This document shows positions 2,176 through 43,579 of a stretch of DNA of 64,000 nt, one piece after another. Position 1 is the first letter of the stretch. Every line of letters begins with the position of its first letter. The position numbers and the translations under genes were made by a program. The stretch comes from Alphaproteobacteria bacterium. Lineage in GTDB: Bacteria > Pseudomonadota > Alphaproteobacteria > Caedimonadales > UBA1908. The stretch is taken from the NCBI GenBank assembly GCA_021298595.1, contig JAJTHL010000021.1, positions 36,310 to 100,309 on the forward strand, read 5' to 3'. A model generated the notes under the pieces. The model was not told where the DNA came from, did no database searches, and saw only the letters and a list, made by a program, of their open reading frames with translations.

Positions 2176-4657
<2,482 letters not shown>

Positions 4658-8099: not shown

Positions 8100-8102
8100 C
8101 GT

Positions 8103-9087: not shown

Positions 9088-9229
9088 CCCCCCCTTCAAA
9101 AGCCCTTTCCTTCGATGCACGACTTGCATTTTTGTCTAAAAGCCTTAAAAGTGTTGCAGCATGGCGTTAAGATTTGTGGTAAAGTGGCGCTTAGAATTCT
9201 GTCCTTTGTAACGTGTTAGAGGGTAATTA

Positions 9230-12004: not shown

Positions 12005-12011
12005 GCCCTCC

Positions 12012-13178: not shown

Positions 13179-13258
13179 CAGATAATGTATCGTTGCCTAT
13201 AACCCATTCGCGGCGTTGCGGTTTTTCAAAATCGCCTGTCCTCTAGAAAAGAGCCCCT

Positions 13259-14677
13259 TCATGCTTCTTCATCACGCGCGGCGTGAAAAGGCAATTTTCT
13301 ACTTTTCATCCAGACGTAAACGGGGATTCCACCCATGACAAGAAACGAGCCAAAAAAGACGATTTCCTCGCCTGCCCCCGCAATGGTGCCAAAGGAATAG
13401 AGAAGGGCAAGGCACGTCACCATCACATGCTTTACGACCAAAGGTGCAGTCCCCCGGTGGTAATCGCGTAGCAAGAAAAAGAGCTCAGCCGCGCTGGAAT
13501 AGAAATAAGGTAAGAGGACTGCGAAGGTCGTCAGGGTGACTAGAAACCTCAATTGCTCTGTCAGTCCTGCTTCATAATTCAAAAACAGCAAAATCGATAC
13601 CAAAGAGGATGAAATGAAAAGCCCTACCACAGGAAGCCCCCGCTTCGAGACCCTGGCAAAGATCTCGGGAAAGAGATGATCCCGCGCCGCCGCCAGGGGA
13701 ATTTGCCCCAAAAGGAGAATCCATCCATTAAGCCCCCCAAAGCTTGCGATGGCCCCGCACACGGCCACAGCTGTAAGCGCCCATGGGCCCAGCGCCACAC
13801 CGCTTGCGCTGGCGAAGGCGGCGGGATCCGCAGCCGTGGTTGGGATACTAAGAATACCCATGACCGCGGCAGAGGAGCCAATATAAAGGAGGGCTGTGAT
13901 GAAGGTCCCAAGCATGGTGGCACGGGGAATGGTTTTGGAGGCGGCTTTGATATTCTCGGCCGGGATCGTTGCAGACTCAAGGCCCATAAAGGTAAAAAGA
14001 GTCACGGCCGCCGCCCCCGAAAGGCCTTGAAAGATCCCTGTCCCTGGGGTGAGGAGGGGTGAAAAATGTGCCAGATTCACATGAAAAAATCCCACGGCGC
14101 ACATGATCAAAAGGGGAAGAATTTTTAAAAATGTGGTAAGAATTTGAACATCACCGACGGTGCGCATGCTGCGCATATTGAGGAAGGTCAACCCCCAAAT
14201 AAAGGAAAGCGCGGTGGCAAGGGCGTACAAGGGATGCGCGCCAAGTCCTGGAAAAAGGGCTGTCAAAAAACCCACAAGGGCAATGACAACGGCACTATTG
14301 CTGACCCAAATAGAGACCCAATAACTCCACGCTACTTGAAATCCCACAAAATCCCCAAAGGCCTTGCGGCTATAGACGTAGGGGCCTCCTGTCTTGGGAT
14401 AGCGCTCGCTTAACTTTGCAAAAACCATGGACAAGCACAATGCCCCAACGGTTGTCACGCCCCACCCCACAAGGCCAATGGAGCCGTACACAGCCACCGT
14501 TGACGGCAGGAGGAAAATCCCGGCGCCCACCATATTGCCGATCACAAGGGCCGTTGCATGAAGAAATCCAAGTTCCTTTGGGGTCGCCACGCGCGCGCCT
14601 CCTTGTCTTGTTGAAAGTGCCACCATAGGGTCAGGGCTGGCCCCTGTCAAGGAGGGGGCTTTTCCCTTAAAACCCAT
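13259..14677 (-). CDS. APC-superfamily amino acid permease/antiporter (basic amino acid/polyamine type)
   Basis: 472 aa with about 12 TM segments. N-terminal VIGNMVGAGIFLLPS and GGPYVYSRKAFG motifs are typical of APC transporters. Substrate is not inferable. Confidence 0.8.
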   Translation of the reverse strand: MGFKGKAPSLTGASPDPMVALSTRQGGARVATPKELGFLHATALVIGNMVGAGIFLLPSTVAVYGSIGLVGWGVTTVGALCLSMVFAKLSERYPKTGGPYVYSRKAFGDFVGFQVAWSYWVSIWVSNSAVVIALVGFLTALFPGLGAHPLYALATALSFIWGLTFLNMRSMRTVGDVQILTTFLKILPLLIMCAVGFFHVNLAHFSPLLTPGTGIFQGLSGAAAVTLFTFMGLESATIPAENIKAASKTIPRATMLGTFITALLYIGSSAAVMGILSIPTTAADPAAFASASGVALGPWALTAVAVCGAIASFGGLNGWILLLGQIPLAAARDHLFPEIFARVSKRGLPVVGLFISSSLVSILLFLNYEAGLTEQLRFLVTLTTFAVLLPYFYSSAAELFFLLRDYHRGTAPLVVKHVMVTCLALLYSFGTIAGAGEEIVFFGSFLVMGGIPVYVWMKSRKLPFHAARDEEA

Positions 14678-19158: not shown

Positions 19159-19273
19159 ATTAGGTCCAGAACCCTTCTTGATTTAAAGCTACATATCAAA
19201 TTGTTGATTATCATTACTTGACCGTTTGGTAAACAGATACCACATAACAGATGTATTCACTTTCGGAATGTTA

Positions 19274-20287
19274 ATGATGAAACAAATTCTTTCCAGCCTG
19301 CTCTTGGGCGCAACTCTTTGCATAGGCGGCTCTTCCCTGGCTACGGCGTCATCTTCTCTCATGGTTGGCCCCGTTGAATACATCAAAGAACAGGATTCTG
19401 CCTCTGGCGCTCTGCGTGTAAAGGCTGTAATCACCGATGCAGTGAATGTGTTCAAGGCTCGAGCCAAGTTTCAAAACCCAGACTTCATCGCCGAGCTCAA
19501 GCCGCGCCTTGAAGCAGGAGACGTGACCTATCAAGATCTAGGACGCAGCGTGCACGTGACAATTCTTCGCTCGCTTTTTGATCGTCATCTGCCTGAACTG
19601 AGACGTTTTTTTGGCAATGATGTCGCCAAGTACTTGCCCGAATATGACCGCGCGCCGGCAAGCGCTGTTTTGTTTGACACACCCCGAGCCTTCAATCCCT
19701 ATCTTTATGGGCTTTATAACCCTGACGTCCAAGCAGCTTACAACCCAGCGAAGGACGGCGCGTATGAAAATTTCATGAGGGCACACTTTTTTAACTTTAG
19801 GGTTCGTGAAAACCGTTCCTACAAATTGCCCGATGACTTTTCGTCAGCCAATTATTTAAAGCTTAATCCCGACGTTGCCAGCGCAGCGTACACAGACGCA
19901 GATCCAAACTTCTTTGCCATAAGCCATTATGTGCAACATGGACGGGGCGAAAAAAGGGCGTACGCGCCGACCCTTCCCGCTGATTTCGATGCCAACGAGT
20001 ACTTTGCCTTGAATCCTGATGTGGCAAAGAACGCCCCCGTCAGAGAGTTTATCGGGGGTAAAGACGCCGAGTTTGCAAAAGAACATTACCTCAAGCATGG
20101 GTTCGCGGAGGGAAGGGCTTACAAGGCTGACGTCCCCGCAGATTTTAGCACTTGGGGCTACTTACTTAAAAATCAAGATGTTGCACAACACGTGCGAGAC
20201 AGAGGCGTTGACTTTTTTGCTCAAGATGCATATGCAAGGGCGCACTACATGCACCATGGGCAACATGAAAAAAGACTTTATAGATAA
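19274..20287 (+). CDS. secreted protein: IKEQD-type N-domain plus four C-terminal NPDV/EGR repeats (family member B1)
   Basis: Signal peptide MMKQILSSLLLGATLCIGGSSLATA (start could be 19268, 19274 or 19277). Repeats run from about 19679. Ends ..HYMHHGQHEKRLYR followed by the stop. Confidence 0.85.
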   Translation: MMKQILSSLLLGATLCIGGSSLATASSSLMVGPVEYIKEQDSASGALRVKAVITDAVNVFKARAKFQNPDFIAELKPRLEAGDVTYQDLGRSVHVTILRSLFDRHLPELRRFFGNDVAKYLPEYDRAPASAVLFDTPRAFNPYLYGLYNPDVQAAYNPAKDGAYENFMRAHFFNFRVRENRSYKLPDDFSSANYLKLNPDVASAAYTDADPNFFAISHYVQHGRGEKRAYAPTLPADFDANEYFALNPDVAKNAPVREFIGGKDAEFAKEHYLKHGFAEGRAYKADVPADFSTWGYLLKNQDVAQHVRDRGVDFFAQDAYARAHYMHHGQHEKRLYR

Positions 20288-20603
20288 TTGAACTCACTCA
20301 CAATAAAGCCGCCCCTTTACCGGGTGGCCTTGTTGCGATCACTTTTCGTTCCTTCCTTTCATTTCTTTAACCTCCCTCAAGGCGTAGGGCGCTTTTCTTT
20401 TTGCTGACATCGCCCCCTCCTTACACTTTTTGATCTACACCCTTCCCGGCCGGTGTCGTTTCCTCCACCTCCTCACTTTGCTTATTTAAATATTGAGCTT
20501 TTCTTAATTTGAAAAACACTTGTTAACTTTTCATTGAAACTTACTTGACTTCATGGTAAAAAGGTACCATATGAAAAATATATTCACTTTTGGAGTTGTA
20601 TTG

Positions 20604-21602
20604 ATGAAAAAAATTCTTTCTAGCATGATCCTAGGGGCGACCCTTTTCATGGGCGCCTCTTCCATGGTCACAGCGTCTTCTCGGGTGATTGACGGCGTTG
20701 AAATCATCAAAGAGCAGGATTCTGCCTCTCGCGCTGTGCGTGTGAAAGTTATTATCACAGATAGTCAAGATTTGGCGGAGATTCGATACGGTCTCCAACG
20801 AAAGGATCTCATGAGCGAGCTAAAGCCGCACCTTGAGGCAGGAGACGTGACCTATCAAGATCTAGGAAACGCCATTCACATGACAATTCTTCGATCGGTT
20901 TTTGATCTTCACCTTCCTGAACTAAGCGATCTTTTTGAAGATAACCTGGCCAAGTACTTACCCCAGTTTGACCGCGCGCCGGCGCGCTCTGTCTTGTTTG
21001 AGACACCTCCAGCCTTCAATCCCTACATTTATGGGCTTTATAACCCGGACGTAAAGGCGGCTTACAACCCCACAAGAGACGGCGCATACGAGAACTTCAT
21101 GAAGGCGCACTTTTTTAACCATAGGCTTCGTGAAAATCGTTCCTACAAGTTGCCCGATGACTTTTCATCAGCCAATTATTTAAAGCTTAATCCTGATCTT
21201 GCCAGCGCAGCCTATGCCCAGCCAGACCCAAACTTCTTTGCCATTAGCCATTATATACAAAACGGACGTGATGAAAAAAGGGCGTACGTGCCGACCCTTC
21301 CTACTGATTTCGATGCCAATGAGTACTTTGCCTTGAATCCTGATGTGGCAAAGGCCGCCCCTCAATTTTCTTGGGAACAAGAAAAGTTTGCAAAAGAACA
21401 TTACCTCAAGCATGGGTTTGCAGAAGGAAGGGCTTACAAGGCTGACGTCCCCGCAGATTTTGATCCTTTCACGTACCGCTACAAAAATCCCGACGTTCAA
21501 AACTATTTAGAAAAAAATAACGTTCCCATCGCTGCTTGGAATGCCCATGCAAGGGTGCACTACATGAAAAATGGGCATCGCGAAACAAGAATTTATAAAT
21601 AA
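20604..21602 (+). CDS. secreted protein: IKEQD-type N-domain plus four C-terminal NPDV/EGR repeats (family member B2, tandem duplicate of B1)
   Basis: GGAG lies 8 nt upstream of ATG 20604. Signal peptide MKKILSSMILGATLFMGASSMVTA. Collinear with and highly similar to B1. Ends ..HYMKNGHRETRIYK followed by the stop. Confidence 0.85.
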   Translation: MKKILSSMILGATLFMGASSMVTASSRVIDGVEIIKEQDSASRAVRVKVIITDSQDLAEIRYGLQRKDLMSELKPHLEAGDVTYQDLGNAIHMTILRSVFDLHLPELSDLFEDNLAKYLPQFDRAPARSVLFETPPAFNPYIYGLYNPDVKAAYNPTRDGAYENFMKAHFFNHRLRENRSYKLPDDFSSANYLKLNPDLASAAYAQPDPNFFAISHYIQNGRDEKRAYVPTLPTDFDANEYFALNPDVAKAAPQFSWEQEKFAKEHYLKHGFAEGRAYKADVPADFDPFTYRYKNPDVQNYLEKNNVPIAAWNAHARVHYMKNGHRETRIYK

Positions 21603-21651: not shown

Positions 21652-22202
21652 ATCATTTTTTATATCTTTTTCTTTCGCTTTTGTGACCCCTGCCCCTCAA
21701 GTTGCAGGGGATTTTTATTGCCTGACATTGCAAGCGTTACGATGCTTGGATAACTACCTCTTTTAGTGCATGCGCCTCAGGGGCGCGCGTCGCGCGTCTT
21801 TTGCCTGCACCGCGCTCCATCAAAGACCAAGGCGTTTTACCTGCGCGGTCTCGCTTCGTGGGTTCTTCAAAAATTATTTTCGACAGATGCGTCTTCCTAA
21901 GGGGGAATGGGAACACGCTTGCCCCAAGCGATTGAACCAGAAAAGAGCGTCTTAGCTCTTACCAAACAGGCATTATTTTGCCATAGAGCCTTTTATCTCA
22001 TTAGGCAAAAAAATCCTTCGTGAGTTCCCCCAGCTCCTCAATGGGCGCTTAGGCATTTGTGCGTCTTGCAGGGCCTGGCACGCCAGAAAGGCATCTACCA
22101 ACAGATCTAATTTAGAAAATAAAGCTCGTAATCCAATTTTTAATCTGATGGAAATAATTTTGTTTGTACAATTTGAGATAAATGGATAGCCAAAGAGCGA
22201 TC

Positions 22203-22895
22203 ATGCGCCCCTTACTTTTTTTCCTCGCCATAACCATTGCCTGGTTTCATAGCCCTTCAATCAGGGCCAGTGAACTTGATTTAAAAGGCGTTTTTGTAGA
22301 AAAACAAGAGGATCCTAAAACCCACAGCGTGCGCGCAAAAGTGACCATCACAGATCCCATCAAACACCAAAAACTTAATATACATCTCCAAAATCCCGCT
22401 GTTATGATGCTTTTGCAGCCAGTTATGCAAAATAAAAATCTGATGATTGACCAAAAACCAGATTCTGTCACAATTTTGGCAAGTGAAGGACTTATTCAGC
22501 AAACGATCCCCCTCCTCGATCTAATGCTACCAAAGGAAAAAGGAACCATTGAGGCTTATGTACGCCTCTTCAAGCAGGCACCCGCCAAACAAGTTCTTTT
22601 TAATCTCCCCCATGATTTTTCTTCGCAAAACTATCTGGCTTTAAATCCCGATGTGGCTCAACACGCAAAGGAGAACAATCTGGATCCAGAGGCCTTTGCT
22701 GCGCGCCACTACGCAGAATCTGGACATTTGGAAAATAGGATTTTCACACAGTCCCTGCCCCAGGACTTTAATCCAGAACGCTACCTTGCTTTAAATCCTG
22801 ACGTGGCGGCGGTGGCGGGGCTCGAAAAAGACCCCCAAGCCTTTGCCGTTTGGCATTATCTCCATCACCCCCATGAACAGAGATCATACAAATAA
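22203..22895 (+). CDS. secreted protein: IKEQD-type N-domain plus two C-terminal NPDV/EGR repeats (family member B3)
   Basis: Signal peptide MRPLLFFLAITIAWFHSPSIRA. GVFVEKQEDPKTHSVRAKVTITD aligns with B1/B2. Repeats are PHDFSSQNYLALNPDVAQHAKENNLDPEAFAARHYAESGHLENRIF and LPQDFNPERYLALNPDVAAVAGLEKDPQAFAVWHYLHHPHEQRSYK followed by the stop. By eye it is more AT-rich than its neighbours. Confidence 0.8.
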   Translation: MRPLLFFLAITIAWFHSPSIRASELDLKGVFVEKQEDPKTHSVRAKVTITDPIKHQKLNIHLQNPAVMMLLQPVMQNKNLMIDQKPDSVTILASEGLIQQTIPLLDLMLPKEKGTIEAYVRLFKQAPAKQVLFNLPHDFSSQNYLALNPDVAQHAKENNLDPEAFAARHYAESGHLENRIFTQSLPQDFNPERYLALNPDVAAVAGLEKDPQAFAVWHYLHHPHEQRSYK

Positions 22896-23154: not shown

Positions 23155-23205
23155 CGCTTCGTTCTAATCCGTGAGATTAGCCTTCTAGTTTTGGAGTTTA
23201 AGATA

Positions 23206-24303
23206 ATGATGCATCGCCGTGCACGTTTATTTTCGTGCGTTGTTTTTATTGCCGTATCGACAACATTTTGTCACGCAAGTTCGCCCGAGTTTGACCTTGA
23301 GCAATCTGCTCGTCCCGTTTCTTACATCTCCTCTGTGACGTCGTCGGTAAGTGACGCGCTCCATTTTGCCATGGATAACTTTTTTGCCGCGATCAGTAAA
23401 TCATGCCGCTCAGTTGCCACACGGTTGCGTCTTGCAGATAATAGCTCTCATCAAAGCCCCTTCATGGGCTTTGCACACTACAAAGCGAGAAATCCCTACT
23501 GGCATGCCCTCCCCTCTTCTCTTTTGACGGAGCTCAGGCAAGATAAATGGGCATCGAGCCATTTCATTTGGCTCCCTCATCCCCTGGAAAAAGAAACCTT
23601 TCTAAGAGATTTCACTCCCCCCCAAAGCACTCAGACAGACTCTGACCAAACTGTGGAAATGCTTAAAGACGCCATCGAAGAGCAGCAAAAGAACAGAAGG
23701 GTGATCGGGGCCGATACAGATCCTCATTGGGTCAACCCACAGAAGTTGTCCCCCGAGGAAAAATTTGAGTTGTGCCAACAGGAACTTAAAGAGGCTGTTT
23801 CTAAAATCAGCGCTTTAGAGAAATCCCATGAGAAAGAAATATCCGTCCTCAAGCGTGCTTACCTCAAAAAAGAGACGGCCTACCTTCAAAAAATTAGTTT
23901 ATTGGAAGAACAGCTTTATGCTGTTTTGCGGGCACAATTTTCCATGCCCGATGATTTTGACCCAAATGTCTACTTAGCCCTCCATGAACATCTAAAAAAA
24001 TATACAGATGAAAAAAATATGACAGCAGAGGAAGCGCATGAATTTGCTGTCACTCACTATAAAAACTATGGCGGTCCTTTAGAGCATTTGCCCTATAAAG
24101 TCGGCATGGAGACATCAATAATACTCCCACATAGCACGTCTGCTGACCAACCAGCCCTTGGCATACCCGATGGTTTTCCAGAGGATCTGATCTCTGTTTT
24201 ATTAGAAACCCCTGAACTGATTATCCAGGCGCACCAATATAGGTTGAATCTAGAAGAATACACGCGTCGATATCTTGCCCTTACCTCTGCTGGTAGAGCC
24301 TAA
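23206..24303 (+). CDS. secreted protein with a central coiled coil and one clear plus one degenerate NPDV/EGR-type repeat (family member C)
   Basis: GGAG upstream of ATG 23206. Signal peptide MMHRRARLFSCVVFIAVSTTFCHA. MPDDFDPNVYLALHEHLKKYTDEKNMTAEEAHEFAVTHYKNYGGPLEHLPYK is followed by a degenerate IPDGFPEDL..YTRRYL segment. Confidence 0.7.
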   Translation: MMHRRARLFSCVVFIAVSTTFCHASSPEFDLEQSARPVSYISSVTSSVSDALHFAMDNFFAAISKSCRSVATRLRLADNSSHQSPFMGFAHYKARNPYWHALPSSLLTELRQDKWASSHFIWLPHPLEKETFLRDFTPPQSTQTDSDQTVEMLKDAIEEQQKNRRVIGADTDPHWVNPQKLSPEEKFELCQQELKEAVSKISALEKSHEKEISVLKRAYLKKETAYLQKISLLEEQLYAVLRAQFSMPDDFDPNVYLALHEHLKKYTDEKNMTAEEAHEFAVTHYKNYGGPLEHLPYKVGMETSIILPHSTSADQPALGIPDGFPEDLISVLLETPELIIQAHQYRLNLEEYTRRYLALTSAGRA

Positions 24304-34286: not shown

Positions 34287-35948
34287 ATGAAGCCGGTCAT
34301 TCCAGGCCTTGCAGGGGAGCTCACAAAAGCGGGGCTTCTTGGCGCTGATCAGGCGCTCGTTTTATTGCAAGAACAGCGCGCCACCGGAAAACCCCTTGAA
34401 ACCCTTATTGTTTCTTTTGGGTTTTTGGAAACCCAGATCCTGCATGCCTTTCTTGAGGATCAAAACAAGGTCCGCCTTTATGACCCCGAGATACATCACG
34501 TGGATCCCCTTCTTACAGAGTCTTTTGGCTACCATGAGGCTCTTCGCCATAAAACTTTACCGCTCTTTCAAGAGGGCGACACCCTGCACGGTGTTTTTGT
34601 GGACGTGCACGACGTAATCGCCCAAGACGCGCTTAAAAAGGCCTTTCCCCAATGCACCCGCGTGACAGCCTATCTTATTCGCCCCGACGCCTTTCAAGAA
34701 AAACTTGATCACGTTTATGATCAAAGGGTGGATTTATCGTTTTTTCTTGAAAGCCTCAGCCACGACTCTTCCCACGCCAAAAGCGGGGCGCAGCGCTTTT
34801 TGGACGCCCTTTTTCTTCGCGCCGTGAGGGAAAGGGCCTCGGACATTCACATGGAGCCTGATCAATTTTTTGTACGGGTTCGTAACCGCGTGGACGGGGT
34901 TCTGCGCCAAACGGTCATCTTTCACAAAGATCACTGGTCAGCTGTTTGTGTGTGTCTGAAAATCATGGCGGGCCTCAATATTGCACAAACAAGGCAACCC
35001 CAGGGCGGTCGCTTTCACTACGTCGTCGCGGGCAGGCCTGTTGATTTTCGTGTCTCGATTCATCCAACCCAGCACGGTGAGAATATTGTTTTGCGCCTTC
35101 TGGATCGCCTTTACGGACTGATGCCCCTCAAAGATTTGGGATTTTGTGACAGGCAAGTGGATATCTTGAAAAGTGTTTTAAAAAGCTCTGACGGTCTTAT
35201 CCTTTTGACAGGACCGACGGGTGCTGGAAAAACAACGACGCTTTATTCGATGCTGGCCCACCTCGACGCACAAGCACGTAATATTATGACCCTAGAAGAG
35301 CCCATTGAATATAGCCTAAAGGGTCTTCGACAAAGCGAAATCAAGGATTTGGGAGGAGTGCGCTTTGGCGAGGGTGTCCGCTCTCTCCTGCGGCAGGACC
35401 CGGACGTGATTTTCATCGGTGAAATTCGTGATGAGGAAACAGCGTCCATGGCCCTTCGTGCGTCCATGACGGGGCATCTGGTTCTTTCAACCCTTCACAC
35501 CAACGATACCCTATCGGTGGTGCAACGCCTCAAAGATCTGGGGGTGCCAGCCCACCTTATTGAAGGGAATCTCCTATGCCTTGTGGCCCAGCGTCTTTTG
35601 CGTCGCCTTTGCCCTGAATGTATGGAAAGCAGCGCCCAAGGCAACACCCCCAAAGGATGCACCGCTTGCCATTGGACCGGTTACAAGGGACGTTTTGCCA
35701 TTGCAGAAGTTTTGCCCCTCACCCTGGACCTTGAACATAAAATGGTGCAAGGACACGCAAAAAGCGCTCTTCTTCAAGATCTTCAGGCCAAAGGGTTTGA
35801 AACCCTGTGGGATCGGGGCCTTGGGCATGTCCGAAGCGGCGCCACCAGCTATCAGGAACTTTGTCGTGTGGTCAGGCGCCACGGTTGGGAGAGCGCCCCT
35901 GCCGATTTACAACAAAACGAAAAGGGGTATCGTCGTGCGGAAGGATAA
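34287..35948 (+). CDS. GspE/PilB-family secretion ATPase (type II secretion / type IV pilus assembly)
   Basis: 553 aa. N-terminal T2SSE_N-like domain. Walker A GPTGAGKTTT, Asp box MTLEEPIEY, Walker B DPDVIFIGEIRD, His box TGHLVLSTLHTND, and tetracysteine CPEC..CTAC. Confidence 0.9.
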   Translation: MKPVIPGLAGELTKAGLLGADQALVLLQEQRATGKPLETLIVSFGFLETQILHAFLEDQNKVRLYDPEIHHVDPLLTESFGYHEALRHKTLPLFQEGDTLHGVFVDVHDVIAQDALKKAFPQCTRVTAYLIRPDAFQEKLDHVYDQRVDLSFFLESLSHDSSHAKSGAQRFLDALFLRAVRERASDIHMEPDQFFVRVRNRVDGVLRQTVIFHKDHWSAVCVCLKIMAGLNIAQTRQPQGGRFHYVVAGRPVDFRVSIHPTQHGENIVLRLLDRLYGLMPLKDLGFCDRQVDILKSVLKSSDGLILLTGPTGAGKTTTLYSMLAHLDAQARNIMTLEEPIEYSLKGLRQSEIKDLGGVRFGEGVRSLLRQDPDVIFIGEIRDEETASMALRASMTGHLVLSTLHTNDTLSVVQRLKDLGVPAHLIEGNLLCLVAQRLLRRLCPECMESSAQGNTPKGCTACHWTGYKGRFAIAEVLPLTLDLEHKMVQGHAKSALLQDLQAKGFETLWDRGLGHVRSGATSYQELCRVVRRHGWESAPADLQQNEKGYRRAEG

Positions 35949-35977
35949 TCATTTCCCTTATTTTTCAAGAGGCCTAT

Positions 35978-37171
35978 ATGCCTAACTTTGGTTATTACGC
36001 CCTGACCAAGGAAGGGATCAAGCAAAAGGGATGGGCCACCGTTCAGGATGAAACGTCTTTACGGCGTGTGCTCTCAGACCAAAACCTGACCCTTATTCGT
36101 CATTGGCACGCCCTGCCACAGTGGTGCCAGGGAAGGCGTGTCAAAGACACAGATCGTCAAGAGCTTTTTGCACATCTTGCAGCCCTTCATCATGCGGGAT
36201 TTCCTTTAGAAGAAGCCTTTGAGCACTATCAAGGCTCCCCTTACACTGTATGGTTGTGCCGTGAAATCGCAAGGTCCCTGTGCCAAGGGCACACGCTCAC
36301 AGCCGCCCTAACGCCTTTTTCAGACATGTTTGATCGCACGTGTTTTTGCATTCTTAGTGCAGCTCAAACCCCTACACAAATGTCGGATGCCCTGACCCAT
36401 TTAGCCGAGCATTTCGAGTGGCGCACGCGCACCAAACAAGAGGTTGTAAAGTCTTTGATCTACCCTTTGTGCCTTTTAAGTGTGGTCACGTTCTTGATCG
36501 GCTTCTTGATGACCCAGGTTGTCCCCCAAATGGAACAGTTTTTGGCTCTGAGCGGCACTGAACCTGCGTTATCCGCCCAGATTTTAAAAGAAGTTTGTAC
36601 GGTTATAGAACAATTTGGCGGTCATTTTTTGGGGATCATTTCATTTATAATCGTAGTACTGATTGTAGGTGTACGTTATGTTCCAGACATCAGGATGAGG
36701 ACCGAGCGAGCAGTTCGGCAAATTCCCGTTGTCGGAGCCCTCTGGCATGAAAATCAGGTGCGAGTTTTCTTGCACAGCCTTTGCTTAATGTTACGTGCGG
36801 GCGTTTCTCTTCTTGACGCGCTTAAAGAAGCAACAACTTCTCAAAAAACTGCTTTTCAAAAGGATATGCAGGCGCTCATTCACAAGGTTTCTCAAGGATC
36901 CTCACTCGCCCATGCCATGGAACAGTCGCGGCTCTTCCCTAAAGAAGCTGTGCGCCTTTGCGCCCTTGGTGAAAAAGCTGGATCCCTTGAGCGCTATTTA
37001 AGCCGTGCGTCCTCCTTAATCAGCCACCGATTTCAACACAAAACACAAAAGTTTTTAGCGCTGCTTGAACCCTGCAGTCTTGTTTTTGTTGGCGGGCTTT
37101 TGGTGTGGATTGTTTCATCGGTTTTTGTGCCCCTTTACGAGCATATCACCCTCTTAGAGCGCACGTCATGA
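35978..37171 (+). CDS. GspF/PilC-family inner-membrane platform protein
   Basis: 397 aa from ATG 35978 (MPNFGYYALTKEG). Two-domain architecture with 3 TM segments (LIYPLCLLSVVTFLIGFLMTQVVPQMEQF). Position directly after the ATPase fits. Confidence 0.8.
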   Translation: MPNFGYYALTKEGIKQKGWATVQDETSLRRVLSDQNLTLIRHWHALPQWCQGRRVKDTDRQELFAHLAALHHAGFPLEEAFEHYQGSPYTVWLCREIARSLCQGHTLTAALTPFSDMFDRTCFCILSAAQTPTQMSDALTHLAEHFEWRTRTKQEVVKSLIYPLCLLSVVTFLIGFLMTQVVPQMEQFLALSGTEPALSAQILKEVCTVIEQFGGHFLGIISFIIVVLIVGVRYVPDIRMRTERAVRQIPVVGALWHENQVRVFLHSLCLMLRAGVSLLDALKEATTSQKTAFQKDMQALIHKVSQGSSLAHAMEQSRLFPKEAVRLCALGEKAGSLERYLSRASSLISHRFQHKTQKFLALLEPCSLVFVGGLLVWIVSSVFVPLYEHITLLERTS

Positions 37172-38337
37172 GCGAAACGTTTCTCCTTTACACCCCCCAA
37201 GGCGGCGCCTGGATTAAAGACGGCCACATGGAGGACATTGAGTGCCGAAAAGCACCTTTGCACCCTCCTCATGCTTACACCTTGCTTCTTGATGGATTTG
37301 ATGAGGCTTTTTTGCAAGAACCATGGCCGGTCCTCTCGTGGCATGAGAAAAACTCATACGCCAAAAACCGTACACTGACGACGCATAGCGCCTTAAACGT
37401 ACACTTTATGCGCGCACACGCAAACATCTTACAAAGCGCTAGCACCACGTTTAACGCCGACGCTTTAAACGTTTCTCCCCACAGTTTTTTAAAAGGGGTA
37501 AGTTTGCTTGCCTGGCATTTAGGACCTGCGTTTGAGGAGCCGACCTTGCTCTACCTCACCCTTCCATTACAAAGTCGACGCCTTTACCTGTTCAAGGATG
37601 GAGCACCTCTTTTTAGCCGCACGCTGACTTCCAGTGATCATGCTCTTCAAGATGATATTGACGCAACGCTTTATCATGTCGAGCGCTCCTTTCAAGTGCC
37701 AAGCAATCATATTGCCACCATATCCTGGGACGCCTCGGACCTCCTTTCCTTTCTTCAAAAGCAACGGCGCGCCCGTCTTGCGTTTAGCCATCCTCTGGTA
37801 AAAACATGTGTACGACTCCGACGAAAGCGCATAACGTTGGTCGGGGCGTGTGCTGCCAATATCGTATTGGCAAGCCTTACCGCCTACCAAGGCACAGATC
37901 TTTTCAAAAAGCGTGAAGCAATTCAAAATCTTGACCTTAAATTGAACTCCCTAAGCCAAACTGTCAAAGGCGTTACAAACGCCGCTGCCACTTCTTATGC
38001 CCCTCTTTTCGCTTTTGAGCGCCTTAAAACAGCGCCCCACCCGCTCCATGACCTAAAGGCGCTGGCCTCTTTTAATACAAAGACCATGGGCATCCAGGCC
38101 CTTTCTTGGAAAAAAATACAAAGAAACAAAGCGGCCTTAGAAGTACAAGTTTGTGCACGCACCCCCCTCACCCATCAGGCTTTTGAAGCTCTTGTGGTGA
38201 CACAACAAAAAAGCATCCCGCGCTCTGTTCCTCTCGCCCTTGCCGAAGAAGCCACACCCGTCATTCACTTAGAGGAGGCCCTCCCACCCAGTCATCCCTG
38301 CATCGCGCTTCAATCACCTCACAGGGGGCGTCCATGA
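37168..38337 (+). CDS. hypothetical bitopic protein, GspL- or PilM/PilN-fusion-like by architecture
   Basis: ATGA overlap with the previous gene. About 240-aa cytoplasmic domain, one TM helix (ITLVGACAANIVLASLTAY), a coiled coil and a periplasmic domain. The assignment rests on topology and context only. Confidence 0.4.
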   Translation: MSETFLLYTPQGGAWIKDGHMEDIECRKAPLHPPHAYTLLLDGFDEAFLQEPWPVLSWHEKNSYAKNRTLTTHSALNVHFMRAHANILQSASTTFNADALNVSPHSFLKGVSLLAWHLGPAFEEPTLLYLTLPLQSRRLYLFKDGAPLFSRTLTSSDHALQDDIDATLYHVERSFQVPSNHIATISWDASDLLSFLQKQRRARLAFSHPLVKTCVRLRRKRITLVGACAANIVLASLTAYQGTDLFKKREAIQNLDLKLNSLSQTVKGVTNAAATSYAPLFAFERLKTAPHPLHDLKALASFNTKTMGIQALSWKKIQRNKAALEVQVCARTPLTHQAFEALVVTQQKSIPRSVPLALAEEATPVIHLEEALPPSHPCIALQSPHRGRP

Positions 38338-38861
38338 TTTTTCTTATGACTCATCTGCGTCACCTTTGGATCCTTTGTCTGGTCCTTGGGTTTGTATGCG
38401 GCTCGCTTTTTTGGTATCGGCAACAGACAGAGAGCGTTTATGAAGAAAAACTTGAAGCAGTAAGAGGACTGACCGCACAACAAAACGCATTTCTCAAAGA
38501 CCGCGCCTTTTTCAATGAAAAAAAGGGGCTTTTATCGCAGATGGCAAAGCAAAAATTTGTCTGTGACCCGCCGCCGTCCTATCCCGAACTTAAAGATCTT
38601 ATCCTTCTTGATGCAAAAGCCTGTCATTTTGAGAAAATTCGTGTAGAAAGCGCTCCGCCTCGGCGTCTTGAAAATCTCCACCACCGCCCTGTTATCCTGT
38701 ATTTTCAAACTGCGCTAGATACCGACCTTTATGGGTTTCTAACACGCCTTGAAACACATCTGCCGGCTGTTGTCCAATGGACGTTCTTGTCCCTTTTTGA
38801 AACTGCTGATGGCCACCTTCAAGGAGAAGTACATGGGGACTTAATGAATCATGCGCCTTAA
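38334..38861 (+). CDS. hypothetical bitopic protein, PilO/GspM-like by architecture
   Basis: ATGA overlap. N-terminal TM helix (LWILCLVLGFVCGSLFWY), a coiled coil, and a C-terminal alpha/beta segment (VILYFQTALDTDLYGFLTRLETHLPAVV) reminiscent of PilO/GspM. Confidence 0.4.
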   Translation: MIFLMTHLRHLWILCLVLGFVCGSLFWYRQQTESVYEEKLEAVRGLTAQQNAFLKDRAFFNEKKGLLSQMAKQKFVCDPPPSYPELKDLILLDAKACHFEKIRVESAPPRRLENLHHRPVILYFQTALDTDLYGFLTRLETHLPAVVQWTFLSLFETADGHLQGEVHGDLMNHAP

Positions 38862-39240
38862 ATATCATTCATTTTTGTTGGCTCTGATGGTCACCGGCAA
38901 CGCTGTCGCACACAATGAGCGGCCTTTATCCCTTTTTCACACCCCCGAGCATATTCAAAAGGTTATGCGTCTGCGCGCCGCCGGCCCCATTCCCTCTCAT
39001 CACACGACATCCAACGCCCGACCCGCGCACGTTCGTCTGGACGGCCTTATGTACTTTGGTCCCACGTCTTGGCGCTTATGGATTAATGGTAAACCCTACG
39101 ACAAACGGGTGTTTCCAAACCTAACCGTTGTGCGGGTCACGGCAACCCACGCAACCTTTTCGTGGCAGGATCAGGGTATCACCCACAGCTTTACGCTTGC
39201 CCCGTCCCATAGTTTTCCCCATAACAAAGGTTCACCATGA
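38851..39240 (+). CDS. hypothetical periplasmic protein, PilP / GspC-HR-like by pattern
   Basis: Signal peptide MRLKYHSFLLALMVTGNAVA. VRLDGLMYFGPTSWRLWINGKPYDKR..VVRVTATHATFSW resembles the small beta-domain of PilP/GspC. Overlaps both neighbours. Confidence 0.35.
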   Translation: MRLKYHSFLLALMVTGNAVAHNERPLSLFHTPEHIQKVMRLRAAGPIPSHHTTSNARPAHVRLDGLMYFGPTSWRLWINGKPYDKRVFPNLTVVRVTATHATFSWQDQGITHSFTLAPSHSFPHNKGSP

Positions 39241-39911
39241 CTCATTCCTGTCTTACTTTTGAGCATATCCAGTTGCACCGCAAACAAAATCTCGTCTTTG
39301 AAGATCTTTGCTATAGATTCGACCACGGAAAACGTTATGCCCTTATGGGACCAAACGGAAGCGGAAAGTCATCTCTTTTGCACGTGGCCATGGGACTTGT
39401 GGCGCCCCAAAAAGGTGTGTGCACCCTCCTTGGAGGAGCGCCCGCACGGGCGCGCATCCGCGTCAGTTACCTGCCCGAGAAACTCTTTTTTTTTCCGTCC
39501 CTTGCCGCCAAAGATCTTTTAAGGACCTTGACCACAAGCCCTGATCACCGTGCGCGTGCAGGTGACTTTCTAAAAACACTGGAGTTTAGCAACGGGCTTT
39601 ATGACAAATCCTTGAGAGATCTTTCGAAGGGAAGTTATCAAAAAATCCTCCTCAGCATTTGTCTGACGGCTGAAAAGGAACTCTACCTCCTTGACGAGCC
39701 AACAACGGGCCTTGATCCAGAGAGCATAGACAAGGTCCTGAAGATGATGGCAGATCTTTCCACGCAAGGTCGCACGGTTTTGTTCACAACGCACAACATC
39801 GAAGAGACTAAAGACGTCGATACGCTGCTCACGCTTCAAAACCACCGACTCTTTCCTCTTGAAAAAAAGAAAGCAATCGATTATCATAAGAATACTTGGG
39901 GTGCTTTATAG
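39237..39911 (+). CDS. ABC-type ATPase with degenerate signature and Q-loop, no cognate permease adjacent
   Basis: Walker A GPNGSGKSS, Walker B LYLLDEPTTGLD and H-loop TTHN are present. The signature reads LSKGSYQK instead of LSGGQ, and the Q-loop position reads YLPEK. ATGA overlap with the upstream gene. Confidence 0.75.
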   Translation: MTHSCLTFEHIQLHRKQNLVFEDLCYRFDHGKRYALMGPNGSGKSSLLHVAMGLVAPQKGVCTLLGGAPARARIRVSYLPEKLFFFPSLAAKDLLRTLTTSPDHRARAGDFLKTLEFSNGLYDKSLRDLSKGSYQKILLSICLTAEKELYLLDEPTTGLDPESIDKVLKMMADLSTQGRTVLFTTHNIEETKDVDTLLTLQNHRLFPLEKKKAIDYHKNTWGAL

Positions 39912-39949
39912 GCCCTGAGATGAAGACGAGTATCGCTCAAAAGGAGGAT

Positions 39950-40423
39950 ATGATGATGAGAGCACTTGACTTAACACCCCTTTTCCGTTCCAGCATTGGA
40001 TTTGACCGTTTGTCCCGTTTGGTGGACTCTGCCCTTCGCGCAGAAGAAGGCATGGGTGGGGGCGGTTATCCCCCCTATAACATTGAACGGCTAGATGAAC
40101 AAACATACCGCCTGACCATGGCCGTTGCAGGCTTTAAAGATCATGACCTGAGCATCACTGTTCAAGACAACACCTTGACTGTGTCAGGACGCGCGCGCCC
40201 TGAGGAAGAAGGCATCGAGTACCTTTACCGCGGCATTGCCGGACGCGCGTTCGAGCGCCACTTTCAACTGGCTGACTTTATTAAGGTCGGCCGCGCGAGC
40301 CTTGAAGATGGGATCCTTCGCATTCTTCTCGAGCGTGAGATCCCCGAGGCCCTTAAACCTCGTCAGGTGATGATTGAAACCGCCAAAGCGGCCCCCAAAG
40401 CGGGCCTCATAGAACATAAATAA
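39950..40423 (+). CDS. ibpA: small heat shock protein (Hsp20/IbpA family)
   Basis: MMMRALDLTPLFRSSIGFDRL.., YPPYNIE, and the alpha-crystallin core AVAGF..LSITV..NTLTVSG. AGGAGG is upstream. The exact ATG (39950, 39953 or 39956) is unresolved. Confidence 0.9.
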   Translation: MMMRALDLTPLFRSSIGFDRLSRLVDSALRAEEGMGGGGYPPYNIERLDEQTYRLTMAVAGFKDHDLSITVQDNTLTVSGRARPEEEGIEYLYRGIAGRAFERHFQLADFIKVGRASLEDGILRILLEREIPEALKPRQVMIETAKAAPKAGLIEHK

Positions 40424-40564
40424 CAGCTAGGTTACTCCTCACAAACGGGCGATTCCCAGCGGCTCGCCCGTTTCTTAGGGCCTAAAATTAACTTCCTGCT
40501 TATAAACGGCTTCCCACCCTTCATAATAAATTCAATATACCCTTGGCAAGGATTTATAAAAATA

Positions 40565-40593
40565 TTGACAAAAAATGAAAAAACCTTTAAAAA
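40565..40593 (+). promoter_or_regulatory. candidate sigma70-like promoter
   Basis: TTGACA (40565-40570), 17 nt, then TAAAAA. The AT-rich context makes chance matches easy. Confidence 0.35.
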
Positions 40594-40658
40594 AATTTTG
40601 ATTTATGAATAAATCGATTAAATCACTCAAGCTCTAATCTTAATACAAAGGATTTATT

Positions 40659-41783
40659 ATGAAAAACTCATGTTCTCTTTTCCGTCTTCTGTTGATGGGA
40701 ATTGCTCTTGCCATGACCCCAACTTGTGGTGCGTCCCCTGACACCGACATGAAAGAGGATAACATCTTCCCCTTCACCCTCCTTCCTCAAGAAGTTCAAT
40801 GGCAGACTTTTGGCCATCTCACCCCTACCGAACACGCAAAAGTTGCCCCCACATGCAAGCTATGGCATCAAAGCTTTCAAGAGCATCTCGCAAACCCTTT
40901 GCGCTCTGAGCGAGGCCAAATGTTGCATGACCCCGTGACACCGTTTCAGCACTTTACACCTGTTGAAGCCGAAAAAAGTCTTACCCTTACCCTTGAACAA
41001 GACGGCTTTGTCTTTGTTCCCTTTGGTCACGAGGCGTTCCTTAAAAATCTGAACGTAATAAGTGATCAGGATGTAATCCCTCTTCTGCCTCATCTTTACG
41101 CCAAGGCTTTTGGCACGAAAGAGGATCCTCTCTCTCCTGAAGATGTCGCGTGCCTTAAGGCTGTGATGCCCTGGTCACGGATCGCACTCACCTCGACGAA
41201 TCAAGAAACCTCTAAAGAGAAAGCGCTGGAAAGCCTTCTTGGTCTTGAGGGTAACCCACGTCTTGTCCGTTTTTCAAAAGAGCTGCCTTTACAGCTTTTA
41301 AAAAGCGAGCCACGAACTTTGGTTCTAACATTCTCAGAACTAACCCAGCATCAAGACTTTTTACCCCCCTTTTTCGCGGCTCACCCCGATCAACAGGTGC
41401 ATTTAGTCGCAGATGACGCGTATTTTGCGCAAAAGTATAATACCTCTAACTGGCATTTTGCGTTTATTCCAAGCGAAAAAATTCTTGATTTGCCTGCAAA
41501 AAGTCTTTCAACGGTGCGCCACCTCATCTTGTCCGACCCCCACCATATGGTCACCGGTATGGGGTCACGCTTCTTGATGGATGCAAAAGATCTTCTTTCC
41601 GTTGATATAAAAGGTTTTAACAAGGTGCAAACCCTTCAGCCGGGCTTCTTGAAAAACGCAACGTCCCTTTGTGAGCAGTCAAAGAAGAAGATTCAGCAGT
41701 TTAAAGATGAAGTGGCCAAAGGAAGGCCAGCTTTGCACCCTGATTTTAACCCCGTAGCTTATTTGTCGAGCGGCGCCCTTTAG
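40659..41783 (+). CDS. signal-peptide protein with F-box-like motif and LRR-like C-terminal region (paralog 1)
   Basis: Signal peptide MKNSCSLFRLLLMGIALAMTPTCGA. LLPQEVQWQTFGHLTPTEHAKVAPTCKLWHQ matches the LPxE..(I/F)..L...E..(K)V...CKxW spacing of eukaryotic F-boxes without gaps. The C-terminal L..VDIKGFNKVQTLQPGFLKNATSL is LRR-like. Confidence 0.65.
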   Translation: MKNSCSLFRLLLMGIALAMTPTCGASPDTDMKEDNIFPFTLLPQEVQWQTFGHLTPTEHAKVAPTCKLWHQSFQEHLANPLRSERGQMLHDPVTPFQHFTPVEAEKSLTLTLEQDGFVFVPFGHEAFLKNLNVISDQDVIPLLPHLYAKAFGTKEDPLSPEDVACLKAVMPWSRIALTSTNQETSKEKALESLLGLEGNPRLVRFSKELPLQLLKSEPRTLVLTFSELTQHQDFLPPFFAAHPDQQVHLVADDAYFAQKYNTSNWHFAFIPSEKILDLPAKSLSTVRHLILSDPHHMVTGMGSRFLMDAKDLLSVDIKGFNKVQTLQPGFLKNATSLCEQSKKKIQQFKDEVAKGRPALHPDFNPVAYLSSGAL

Positions 41784-41825
41784 AATCCCCATAGAAAAAT
41801 AAGGACACCCACCTTTACTTGTCAG

Positions 41826-41871
41826 CATCCCTTTTGGCTTTTTGATCAAAGAAGTCAAAAGGGATGTTTTT
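41826..41871 (+). terminator. rho-independent terminator
   Basis: catcccttttg (41826-41836) pairs with caaaagggatg (41856-41866), followed by ttttt. The loop is itself near-palindromic. Confidence 0.7.
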
Positions 41872-41942
41872 AGCCTTTAACGCGACGTAAAAAGCTTTAG
41901 GATACCTGGGTTCTCAGGTGAGCCTTTGCCGTTTCACCTTAC

Positions 41943-42185
41943 TTATCCTTTGACGCCCTTTAAGAAATGCTGCCTATGCTCCTCTTGAAGGTTGCGTTGA
42001 TGACCTCCCTCCACATCGATGATGGACAAAAACGTGCATGACCAAAGTACACATTGCCTTCTTTGAAAACACCCACATGGTTGGGACCTCGGTGGCAAAG
42101 ACTTTCCACCATGACGCGCACAAGCCCTTCGGAATCTGCAAGGGGCCTCTGGCGCCAACATCACAAGCCCTGCAATTCCGCACAT
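41943..42185 (-). pseudogene. decayed 5' fragment of a glutamine-hydrolysing asparagine synthase (asnB-like)
   Basis: Begins MCGIAGLV (class II amidotransferase nucleophile) and later reads LSIIDVEGGHQ. The intervening CHRGPNHVGVFKEGNVYFGHARF is only readable in another frame, and a T5 run at about 42031-42035 restores the frame if read as T6. No synthetase domain follows. Confidence 0.55.
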
Positions 42186-42364
42186 GGTTCATTTTCCTTT
42201 GGTCCATGGATAAAAAGTCATCATTGGTTTTTTCGTGGGCTCGGCAAGGGCGCGCCCCCGTGGCGACGGGGATAACCCTCTTTTTCTTTCGTCACGCAAA
42301 ATACCTAACGACTTAAACCATAAGCACTCTCCCTCTTGCACTCAAAGGAAAATACAAAATAAAT

Positions 42365-42394
42365 TTGACAATTTTTTTTTAATGATCCTATGTA
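42365..42394 (+). promoter_or_regulatory. sigma70-like promoter with a T9 tract in the spacer
   Basis: TTGACA (42365-42370), 18-nt spacer atttttttttaatgatcc, then TATGTA (42389-42394). Confidence 0.4.
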
Positions 42395-42424
42395 GAAACA
42401 TACAAATCAAAAAAAGGATTTTAC

Positions 42425-43579
42425 ATGAAACAATTTCTCTCTCTTTTCAGTCTTCTCTTGGTCGGCGCCAGTCTTGCTGTCAGCCCTGTATGTCAGGCGT
42501 CTGCCACCCCTCTTGACGATACAGAAAATCCGTCTTCCCTCAGTCGCCTTCCCGTGAAACTTCAATGGATCATTTTAGAAAAACTCACCCCTGAAGAAGA
42601 AGGCCGCGTCGCCACCGATTGCAACCTCTGGCACCAAGGTGCTCAAGAACATTTAACAGCGCCCTTGCGCCTTGAATGCGATCAGATGCTCTATGACGTC
42701 CCTACACCGTTTCGGGACTGGTCGCTTTTGGCCGCAAATAGGGCTCTTGCTCTGACCCTTGACGAAGACGGCTTTGTCTTTGTACCCTTTGGCCCCTACT
42801 ATTTTCCAGAACACAGCACCGCGCTTTGTGATGAGGACGTCGCCCCTTTCCTGTCGCAACTCTATGAAAAAGCGTTTAGCGAGAAAAAAGAAGCCCTTTC
42901 ATCCCAAGATCTCTTGTGCCTAAAGGCAGTCCTTCCTTGGTCACGTGTGGTGGTGGATCTACAAAAAGAGGGGATGAAAGCAAAGGCCTTAAACGTCCTC
43001 CTTGACCTTAAGGGTAACCCATCACTTATTCGCTTTTCACAGGCTCTAACGCGTGAAATAGTGCAAAATACCCCCCACACTCTGGTTTTAACCAATCAAG
43101 AGCTGAAGCATTATCAAAGAAGGCTCAAGGATCTTTTTGGAGCGCACCCAGATCAATGTGTTCACTTAGTGACAGAAGTGCCACGTAACATAGTGATAAG
43201 GAGTCCCTCTTTTCCATCCTCCGAGCCCATAGGCTGCCTTGCCTTGAGGGAAGGGCTTTTGAGCGGCGTGCGCCATCTTAGGGTGTCAAACCCCCATCAT
43301 GAAGCCGCCCTCGTGGGAAAGTTCTCACTCGCACCAGATCTTATCTCCCTTGATATAAAAGACTGGAGCGCGCTTAGGCAAGTATTCGAGCACTTTGCCG
43401 AAGGCGGCGTCTCTCTTGTCTCTTTTGACCCGAGGGGACTTACCGGTGTCGTCAAACTTGATGAGACCTTTCTTCACCACGCCACAAACCTCAATGATGA
43501 CTCAAAGAAGAAAATCGAGCGGTTCAGAAAAGAGGTGGAAGAACGACACACAAAAACGCAAAAAAAGCGTGTCGGTTAA
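42425..43579 (+). CDS. signal-peptide protein with F-box-like motif and LRR-like C-terminal region (paralog 2)
   Basis: Signal peptide MKQFLSLFSLLLVGASLAVSPVCQA. LSRLPVKLQWIILEKLTPEEEGRVATDCNLWHQ. Collinear with paralog 1 (LTLDEDGFVFVPFG, CLKAVLPWSR, VRHLRVSNPHH). Confidence 0.65.
   Translation: MKQFLSLFSLLLVGASLAVSPVCQASATPLDDTENPSSLSRLPVKLQWIILEKLTPEEEGRVATDCNLWHQGAQEHLTAPLRLECDQMLYDVPTPFRDWSLLAANRALALTLDEDGFVFVPFGPYYFPEHSTALCDEDVAPFLSQLYEKAFSEKKEALSSQDLLCLKAVLPWSRVVVDLQKEGMKAKALNVLLDLKGNPSLIRFSQALTREIVQNTPHTLVLTNQELKHYQRRLKDLFGAHPDQCVHLVTEVPRNIVIRSPSFPSSEPIGCLALREGLLSGVRHLRVSNPHHEAALVGKFSLAPDLISLDIKDWSALRQVFEHFAEGGVSLVSFDPRGLTGVVKLDETFLHHATNLNDDSKKKIERFRKEVEERHTKTQKKRVG

Follow-up and report, generated by a model that had tools for sequence, protein, structure and literature searches.

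Do two neighbouring genes of an uncultured alphaproteobacterium encode true F-box proteins, and why would such proteins begin with a leader for export from the bacterial cell? The question is raised by a 64,000-nt stretch of contig JAJTHL010000021.1, hereafter called the window, to whose positions all coordinates refer. Two open reading frames (ORFs) in it, pA and pB, had been predicted from the letters alone to be paralogues with a Sec-type leader, an F-box-like motif and BspA-type leucine-rich repeats (LRRs), and possibly effectors that hijack the SCF (Skp1-Cul1-F-box) ubiquitin ligases of a host. Both ORFs are present on the plus strand with the lengths given in this original prediction (Table 1), they are paralogues (43% identity, E 4e-79), and every string quoted was found in them: LPQEVQWQTFGHLTPTEHAKVAPTCKLW represents residues 42-69 of pA, LPVKLQWIILEKLTPEEEGRVATDCNLW residues 42-69 of pB, and LLSVDIKGFNKVQTLQPGFLKNATSL is located near the C-terminus of pA. 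We propose, at a probability of roughly one half, that pA and pB belong, as diverged members, to a family of exported F-box/LRR proteins that is specific to their lineage, duplicates in tandem and is directed at a host.

A diverged F-box at the N-terminus

Eight relatives of the pair were found by a word-indexed search and 1,149 by an exhaustive profile search at E<1e-3, approximately 25 of the latter being full-length matches that covered the N-terminus. Twenty-nine full-length proteins, to which all counts out of 29 refer, aligned as one architecture consisting of a leader, an LPxE...VCKxW segment, a middle domain and repeats. In individual Pfam scans the F-box-like family PF12937 was matched by 21 of the 29 (best 3e-11) and the F-box family PF00646 by 18 (best 3e-7), and several relatives are named 'F-box protein' or 'F-box-like domain-containing protein' by the NCBI pipeline.

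A profile of the whole family gave merely marginal F-box matches in the PDB (E 0.02-0.7), and a segment-only profile was needed. The stricter profile was built from the 49-residue segment and the window's own clade only, and all 25 of the PDB sequences that it matched at E<1 were F-box proteins, with FBXW7 (5e-6), FBXO42 (5e-5) and Skp2 (2e-4) joined by FBXL3, FBXL5, KDM2A/B, Dia2, FBXO22, FBXO4 and FBXL17. The same profile gave an ungapped alignment with the canonical segment found in distant relatives (hhalign probability 98%, E 1.6e-13), and a profile of this canonical clade matched 30 F-box chains at E<1e-3, including AnkB of Legionella (5k35_A, E 3.6e-7). The LP dipeptide, the Cys and the Trp of the F-box are retained in both pA and pB, and helices were modelled in the expected places of pA (residues 44-52, 56-62 and 67-86), though at modest model confidence. 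Judged by these profile comparisons, the segment in pA and pB is a diverged F-box, and the F-box assignment of the original prediction is upheld at the family level.

Expansion and rapid divergence of the family

Copy numbers differ between close relatives. Compared with the two genes in the window, the sister metagenome-assembled genome (MAG) MCMED-G24 contains approximately five copies at this locus and at least five more in a second tandem array. Family members of the window and MCMED-G24 are 30-47% identical, whereas their syntenic neighbours are 58-99.5% identical (TAL 99.5, HSP20 96, XerC 88 and GspE 85). For pB and its orthologue in another strain (contig L014), the ratio of nonsynonymous to synonymous substitution rates (dN/dS) was 0.35, as against 0.10 for SDR, 0.16 for Rsm22, 0.17 for XerC and 0.006 for TAL at the same dS. 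pB is constrained but fast-evolving.

Assembly GCA_046316735.1 holds a protein identical to pB and, on another contig (L012, JBKCZQ010000035.1, positions 7507-14457), a second array of about six F-box/LRR_5 genes that is not near GspE/F. Most members of this array have a leader and a canonical F-box, one gene is apparently split (185 + 203 aa), and a patatin-like gene is located a few genes away. A four-gene array of the family was also found in a more distant MAG.

A Sec-type leader common to the family

The leaders of pA and pB share one layout, with a basic n-region, a 10-residue hydrophobic core, a Pro-containing c-region and C-x-A/S at the predicted cleavage site. In the alignment this layout was common to 26 of the 29 relatives, and the remaining three are truncated gene calls. 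The leader predicted originally is borne out by these features, which were read by rule (n-, h- and c-regions and a small-x-small site). A rule-based cleavage-site finder placed the sites too early, and the predicted cut after residue 25 was taken from the alignment. Three other readings of the N-terminus were ruled out: a lipoprotein, by the missing lipobox (T-P-T-C in pA, S-P-V-C in pB); a substrate of the twin-arginine translocation (Tat) pathway, by the missing twin arginine; and a membrane anchor, because the hydrophobic core of just 10-13 residues is too short.

Leaders are also found on the paralogues in GCA_046316735.1 whose F-boxes are fully canonical. The leader lies about 15 residues from the F-box and is shared across the relatives, and the combination of leader and F-box therefore belongs to the design of the family. 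The L014 orthologue of pB was called without a leader; the in-frame sequence upstream (3414-3486) encodes a hydrophobic core, VVIFKLLLIGITLT, with no ATG, which implies either an alternative start codon or a decaying leader.

Middle domain and repeats

The middle domain is highly conserved and contains the motifs DGFVFVPFG, LYAKAF, LCLKAVMPWSR and HPDQxVHLV, and neither Pfam nor NCBIfam yielded a match to it. The BspA-type unit that follows (profile positions 276-346) matches up to 11 times in large relatives and occurs approximately 1-2 times in pA and 2-3 times in pB. LRR_5 (PF13306) was matched by 11 of the 29 relatives (best 4.9e-16). Neither pA nor pB matched LRR_5 alone in the Pfam scan because the region, though homologous, is too short to score. 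The BspA-type repeats of the original prediction are in this way supported through the relatives, in a smaller number of units than the 'C-terminal third' described there would suggest and with no LRR_5 match in the pair itself.

An AlphaFold model of pA made with the 29-sequence alignment had a mean predicted local distance difference test (pLDDT) score of 85 and a predicted template modelling (pTM) score of 0.80; a first model, made with an 8-sequence alignment, had been discarded (pLDDT 60.5, with the N-terminal 130 residues below 50). Strands and helices alternate regularly from residue 117 to 318, that is, from the middle domain into the C-terminal repeats, and Foldseek returned only weak PDB matches, to LRR ectodomains and the BspA-like protein 4gt6. 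Because of this continuous alternation and these weak matches, the model suggests that the body of pA and pB is probably one irregular LRR-like solenoid.

Relationship to protist symbionts

The gene content of the window is that of an ordinary chromosome, with SecA, CcmF, COX1, GlmU/S, Fab genes, PtsP and SpoT. The nearest named relatives of its SecA, at 66-69% identity, are Ca. Paracaedimonas acanthamoebae, Caedibacter spp., Nucleicultricaceae and Ca. Bealeia, all of them Holosporales symbionts of protists. A single-gene neighbour-joining tree of SecA placed the window lineage beside the Holosporales symbiont clades; only the topology of this tree was used, and cautiously, because its bootstrap criterion was trivially satisfied and did not count as support. 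Every characterised member of the related lineages lives in obligate association with a host (PMC11909080). The best characterised relative of the family itself is a protein (P0019, E 1.5e-53) of Ca. Bodocaedibacter vickermanii, a proven endosymbiont of Bodo saltans that lies free in the cytoplasm of this host, with nothing but Sec and a type VI secretion system (T6SS) for export (PMC8163844).

The locus (40659-43579) was found near-identical in at least 20 freshwater or lake metagenomes from at least 13 studies (2017-2025), and pB was 100% identical on at least 22 metagenome contigs, a pattern resembling that of a near-clonal population with a wide distribution. Two runs bearing the locus are labelled 'fungus metagenome', and this label could be a hint to the host. 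From its genes, the organism appears to be an uncultured freshwater alphaproteobacterium allied to Holosporales, and a link to eukaryotic hosts is probable. A eukaryotic host, on which the original prediction had made its effector interpretation depend, is made probable by the SecA and Bodocaedibacter relatives; the locus itself comes from bulk metagenomes.

Proposed mode of action

In the proposed mechanism, Sec would export the protein, signal peptidase I would remove the 25-residue leader, and the mature protein would leave the cell envelope by a route that the proposal does not specify. If the bacterium lives free in the host cytoplasm like Ca. Bodocaedibacter, the protein would then already be in the host cytosol. 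There the F-box would dock on host Skp1/Cul1, and the middle domain and LRR units would recruit a host protein for ubiquitination; alternatively, the protein might simply titrate Skp1.

The original prediction had found a cleavable Sec leader on an F-box protein hard to reconcile with delivery to the host. The leader is supported by the sequences, and the paradox largely dissolves if the bacterium is naked in the host cytoplasm, where it would need no injection device. Liberibacter and phytoplasmas, both of which live directly in host cytoplasm, have established effectors that depend on Sec (PMC9844206), Bodocaedibacter offers a precedent for the cytoplasmic location, and Legionella substrates of the type II secretion system (T2SS) reach the cytosol (PMC5478897). 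It is a tentative idea, with the odds rather against it, that the family consists of F-box ubiquitin-ligase mimics that reach the host with no injection apparatus, since for a bacterium naked in protist cytoplasm a Sec leader would suffice by itself. If Sec-only delivery is true, no candidate effectors for host manipulation would have been described in the Holosporales-like radiation before pA, pB and their relatives, which would also be the first class of F-box effectors to be defined by export through Sec.

Weighing the alternatives

Several observations weigh against a host-directed F-box role for pA and pB. The PF12937 match of pA (E 8.8e-5, 22.6 bits) is below the cut-off of 24.3, its PF00646 match is at E 0.05 (14 bits, cut-off 20.5), and pB alone had no Pfam F-box match at E<10; Pfam scans, by which the F-box was to be checked, thus recognise it in most relatives and fall short in the pair. 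Eight of 13 consensus positions are kept in pA and 8 of 13 in pB, compared with 11-13 in the human references FBXW7, FBXL5 and Skp2 and 8-13 in other family members. In helix 2 the two paired hydrophobic residues have given way to H-A in pA and E-G in pB, and some paralogues are missing the LP dipeptide. The F-box region of the pA model has a pLDDT of only about 75, and a Foldseek search of the PDB with the whole model returned no F-box protein and nothing significant. By their consensus positions, pA and pB appear as the most degenerate F-boxes of the family, and SCF hijacking by these two in particular is uncertain. The SCF effector proposed originally retains its F-box homology and is weakened by the 8 of 13 positions.

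Other points on the same side concern the setting. BspA-type LRR proteins are typically surface proteins. Scans of the 64-kb window did not identify an outer-membrane export route. The RNA evidence for pA is weak because it is sparse and DNA carry-over is possible. The SecA of a Stellaceae MAG is 66% identical to that of the window, a small margin below the 66-69% of the symbionts. No host is known, and sightings of the locus are limited to bulk freshwater, lake and 'fungus' metagenomes.

The main rival to a host-directed family, doubtful in our judgement but made more plausible by how degenerate pA and pB are, is that these are envelope or surface LRR proteins, BspA-like adhesins or binders in the periplasm or on the surface, in which the F-box is a relic and no longer binds Skp1. 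A Sec leader places a protein outside the cytoplasm, the repeats are of BspA-like type with a weak structural match to the cell-surface LRR protein 4gt6, and several paralogues are without the LP. Against a relic stands the conservation of the F-box segment, at least as good as that of the rest of the protein both between orthologues (81% vs 78% identity) and in mean column identity (49% vs 40%), as well as the fully canonical F-boxes of the leader-bearing paralogues in GCA_046316735.1. Neither a lipobox, a beta-barrel nor a sorting signal was seen that could serve as an anchor, and an F-box is not known to have any function besides Skp1 binding. A stranger alternative is that the F-box fold may have been re-used in the bacterial envelope, outside any eukaryotic cytosol.

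It was also suggested that the GspE/F genes 0.7 kb upstream might provide the route out of the cell. The GspF-like gene ends 3.5 kb upstream of pA, and 0.7 kb is valid only if the string is taken to run through an ABC ATPase gene (ending at 39911), which is followed by HSP20 and then by a hairpin. The string is syntenic in all relatives examined. Its ATPase scored 416 bits on the GspE model of NCBIfam and 391 on PilB, below both cut-offs, and the platform gene is likewise below the equivalog cut-offs for the T2SS and the type IV pilus. The three ORFs that follow (about 389, 175 and 129 aa) had no family match in Pfam and NCBIfam scans, and no secretin or prepilin motif was detected within the window by Pfam, NCBIfam and prepilin-motif scans. 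The string may be a minimal or divergent type II or type IV-pilus-like system.

On this basis we consider it improbable that pA and pB are dedicated substrates of this apparatus, brought by Sec to the periplasm and by an adjacent T2SS across the outer membrane. The genes lie beside the string in the same orientation, family members flank it on either side in three sister genomes, the Sec-type leader is of the kind required (substrates of a T2SS depend on a Sec or Tat leader), and in Legionella such substrates do get to the host cytosol, as cited above. The ATPase and platform, however, are not assignable to a T2SS over a type IV pilus, the neighbouring ORFs and the window offer none of the missing parts, pA has its own ribosome-binding site (RBS) and a spacer after the hairpin, and the second array in GCA_046316735.1, like arrays on two further contigs (L002 and L010), does not adjoin GspE/F. 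A T2SS goes unmentioned in a review of Holosporales, which favours the T6SS (PMC11909080). For these reasons the GspE/F route of the original prediction is possible but unsupported.

More improbable still is an anti-grazing factor of a free-living bacterium, which would act on protist predators after ingestion with no stable symbiosis. It would suit the widespread, near-invariant occurrence of the locus in freshwater metagenomes and the full aerobic and housekeeping set encoded in the window (COX1, CcmF, PtsP, SpoT, GlmS/U and Fab genes). It is difficult to reconcile with the obligate host association of all characterised members of the related lineages (PMC11909080) and with the decay of the asparagine synthase gene asnB at the locus, which suggests dependence on external supply; moreover, a secreted protein that is diluted in lake water or in a food vacuole would hardly reach Skp1. 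Finally, a coincidental motif in unrelated secreted proteins, to which the sub-threshold score of pA and the missing match of pB might point, has next to no probability and is already refuted, because the F-box matches, in Pfam scans of the relatives, in PDB profile searches and in the hhalign comparison with the canonical clade, are consistent, significant and exclusive at the same position across the family.

Comparison with known systems

The closest parallel is NEX1a of Neochlamydia, an amoeba symbiont in which F-box and LRR proteins have expanded by birth-and-death evolution (PMC4209131). The family of the window likewise combines F-box and LRRs, with copy numbers that differ strongly between close relatives, and its tandem, rapidly diverging arrays agree with the NEX1a type in architecture, copy-number differences and contrast in rate. 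It differs in belonging to another phylum, the Alphaproteobacteria, in the far smaller number of copies seen (approximately 8-10), in its larger middle domain of about 170 residues and in the export signal, which is a Sec-type cleavable leader here, whereas NEX1 members have a signal for type III secretion that was demonstrated with a Shigella assay (PMC4209131). No type III secretion system was seen here, though no search was aimed at one. The two families were likened by description.

The GALA (RipG) proteins of Ralstonia are effectors of a plant pathogen, delivered by a type III secretion system with no Sec leader, and their LRRs are plant-like as opposed to the BspA type here; they too were compared by description. 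GALA proteins likewise have an F-box followed by LRRs and have been proposed to enter host SCF complexes (PMC13243912). AnkB of Legionella pneumophila (5k35), one of the Dot/Icm F-box effectors of a bacterium with aquatic protist hosts, has an F-box homologous to that of the window family. AnkB differs in its ankyrin repeats, its delivery by a type IV secretion system, its C-terminal CaaX and the lack of a Sec leader (PMC2790608, PMC2916131).

The effectors of Liberibacter and phytoplasmas resemble the window family in their cleavable Sec leader, and act inside host cells with no injection device (PMC9844206). Liberibacter, too, belongs to the Alphaproteobacteria and is bounded by two membranes. 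These effectors are mostly 10-20 kDa in size, have no F-box or LRRs and show no sequence relationship to the family. The BspA-type surface proteins (LRR_5; 4gt6) are alike in the repeat type of the relatives, in their Sec leaders and in the weak matches to 4gt6, by sequence as well as by structure, and are unlike in having long repeat arrays and no F-box, whereas pA and pB have only about 1-3 units.

What was known already is the domain logic of F-box and LRR and the automatic annotation of relatives as F-box proteins; new are the lineage, the family-wide Sec leader and a middle domain without a known family. A 2025 review of Holosporales describes the mechanisms of host interaction as poorly understood, names the T6SS as the sole candidate for delivery and is silent on ubiquitin, F-box and LRR proteins (PMC11909080). 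To this field the family supplies concrete candidate effectors and a testable model of delivery, namely Sec export by a cytoplasm-dwelling symbiont. It also extends a convergent theme of F-box-LRR expansion, seen in Chlamydiae and Ralstonia, to a third lineage with a different export signal. pA, pB and their close relatives are at present annotated as 'hypothetical' with no precomputed Pfam domain, and family-level profiles can assign them.

Features of the locus and its expression

The features of the locus are compiled in Table 1.

Table 1. Positions of pA, pB and associated features in the 64,000-nt window. A slash in a leader sequence marks the predicted cleavage site.
Feature	Position	Strand	Description
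pA	40659-41783	+	374-aa ORF: leader, F-box-like segment, conserved middle domain, 1-2 BspA-type LRR units, helical tail
pA Sec-type leader	40659-40733	+	Residues 1-25, MKNSCSLFR-LLLMGIALAM-TPTCGA/S; mean Kyte-Doolittle hydropathy of core 2.24
pA F-box-like segment	40776-40874	+	Residues 40-72; PF12937, clade profile, hhalign, model helices
pA conserved middle domain	40956-41468	+	Residues ~100-270; invariant alignment columns; pLDDT 88-98
pA BspA-type LRR unit(s)	41496-41678	+	Residues ~280-340, RHLILSDP...LLSVDIKGFNKVQTLQPGFLKNATSL
pB	42425-43579	+	384-aa ORF; paralogue of pA with the same architecture and one extra LRR unit
pB Sec-type leader	42425-42499	+	Residues 1-25, MKQFLSLFS-LLLVGASLAV-SPVCQA/S; mean hydropathy 2.38
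pB F-box-like segment	42542-42640	+	Residues 40-72; 47% identical to pA segment; included in clade profile
GspE/PilB-like ATPase, GspF/PilC-like platform and three ORFs	34287-39240	+	T2SSE, MshEN and T2SSF domains
Hairpin AAACGGGCG...CGCCCGTTT	40443-40473	+	GC-rich, 20 nt past HSP20 stop; read from sequence
AT-rich spacer before pA	TTGACA 40565-40570; AAGGA 40649-40653	+	Follows hairpin
asnB (asparagine synthase) remnant	41997-42185	-	tblastn with the intact 574-aa gene of contig L001

pA and pB are each preceded by an AT-rich spacer with a TTGACA hexamer, and in both an AAGGA box is located 6 nt ahead of the ATG. Position 40565, where the original prediction let the locus begin, is the start of this hexamer in the spacer upstream of pA. 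A pattern scan for promoters and terminators found no enrichment of sites over shuffled sequence and did not call the hairpin at 40443-40473 a terminator. Taken together, hairpin, spacer and own RBS weakly suggest that pA is transcribed separately. Fragments of pA were detected in three RNA libraries (40698-40848, 41026-41330 and 41437-41751), and are weak evidence of transcription.

The HSP20 gene directly upstream of pA (39902-40481) is covered at depth 34 by a contig of a freshwater metatranscriptome. With this depth and the 96% identity to the copy in the sister MAG, it appears to be both highly expressed and highly conserved.

pA and pB are separated by a 641-bp spacer that contains a remnant of asnB, of which only about 62 N-terminal codons (1-62) are left, with a stop and a frameshift. 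Three related contigs carry an intact asnB (574 aa) at this place, and its decay here points to ongoing gene loss in the lineage.

A repeat module shared with longer members of the F-box family

Four leader-bearing proteins are clustered at 19226-20287, 20553-21602, 22182-22895 and 23191-24303, in a region of low GC content (44-46%). They end in 1-3 copies (one in the fourth) of a repeat of approximately 50 residues, LPxDF..YLxLNPDV...fAxxHYxxxGxxExRxY, which had no match in Pfam or NCBIfam. The same repeat forms the C-terminal tail of longer members of the F-box family (P0002, P0005, P0006 and P0009-P0013), and LHPDFNPVAYLSSGAL in pA is a possible vestige of it.

A 938-aa ORF at 48606-51422 had no family match and consists largely of internal repeats. 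These also match DNA just downstream of the F-box genes in the sister MAG, which suggests that they are probably the same NPDV...HY..G..EGR module.

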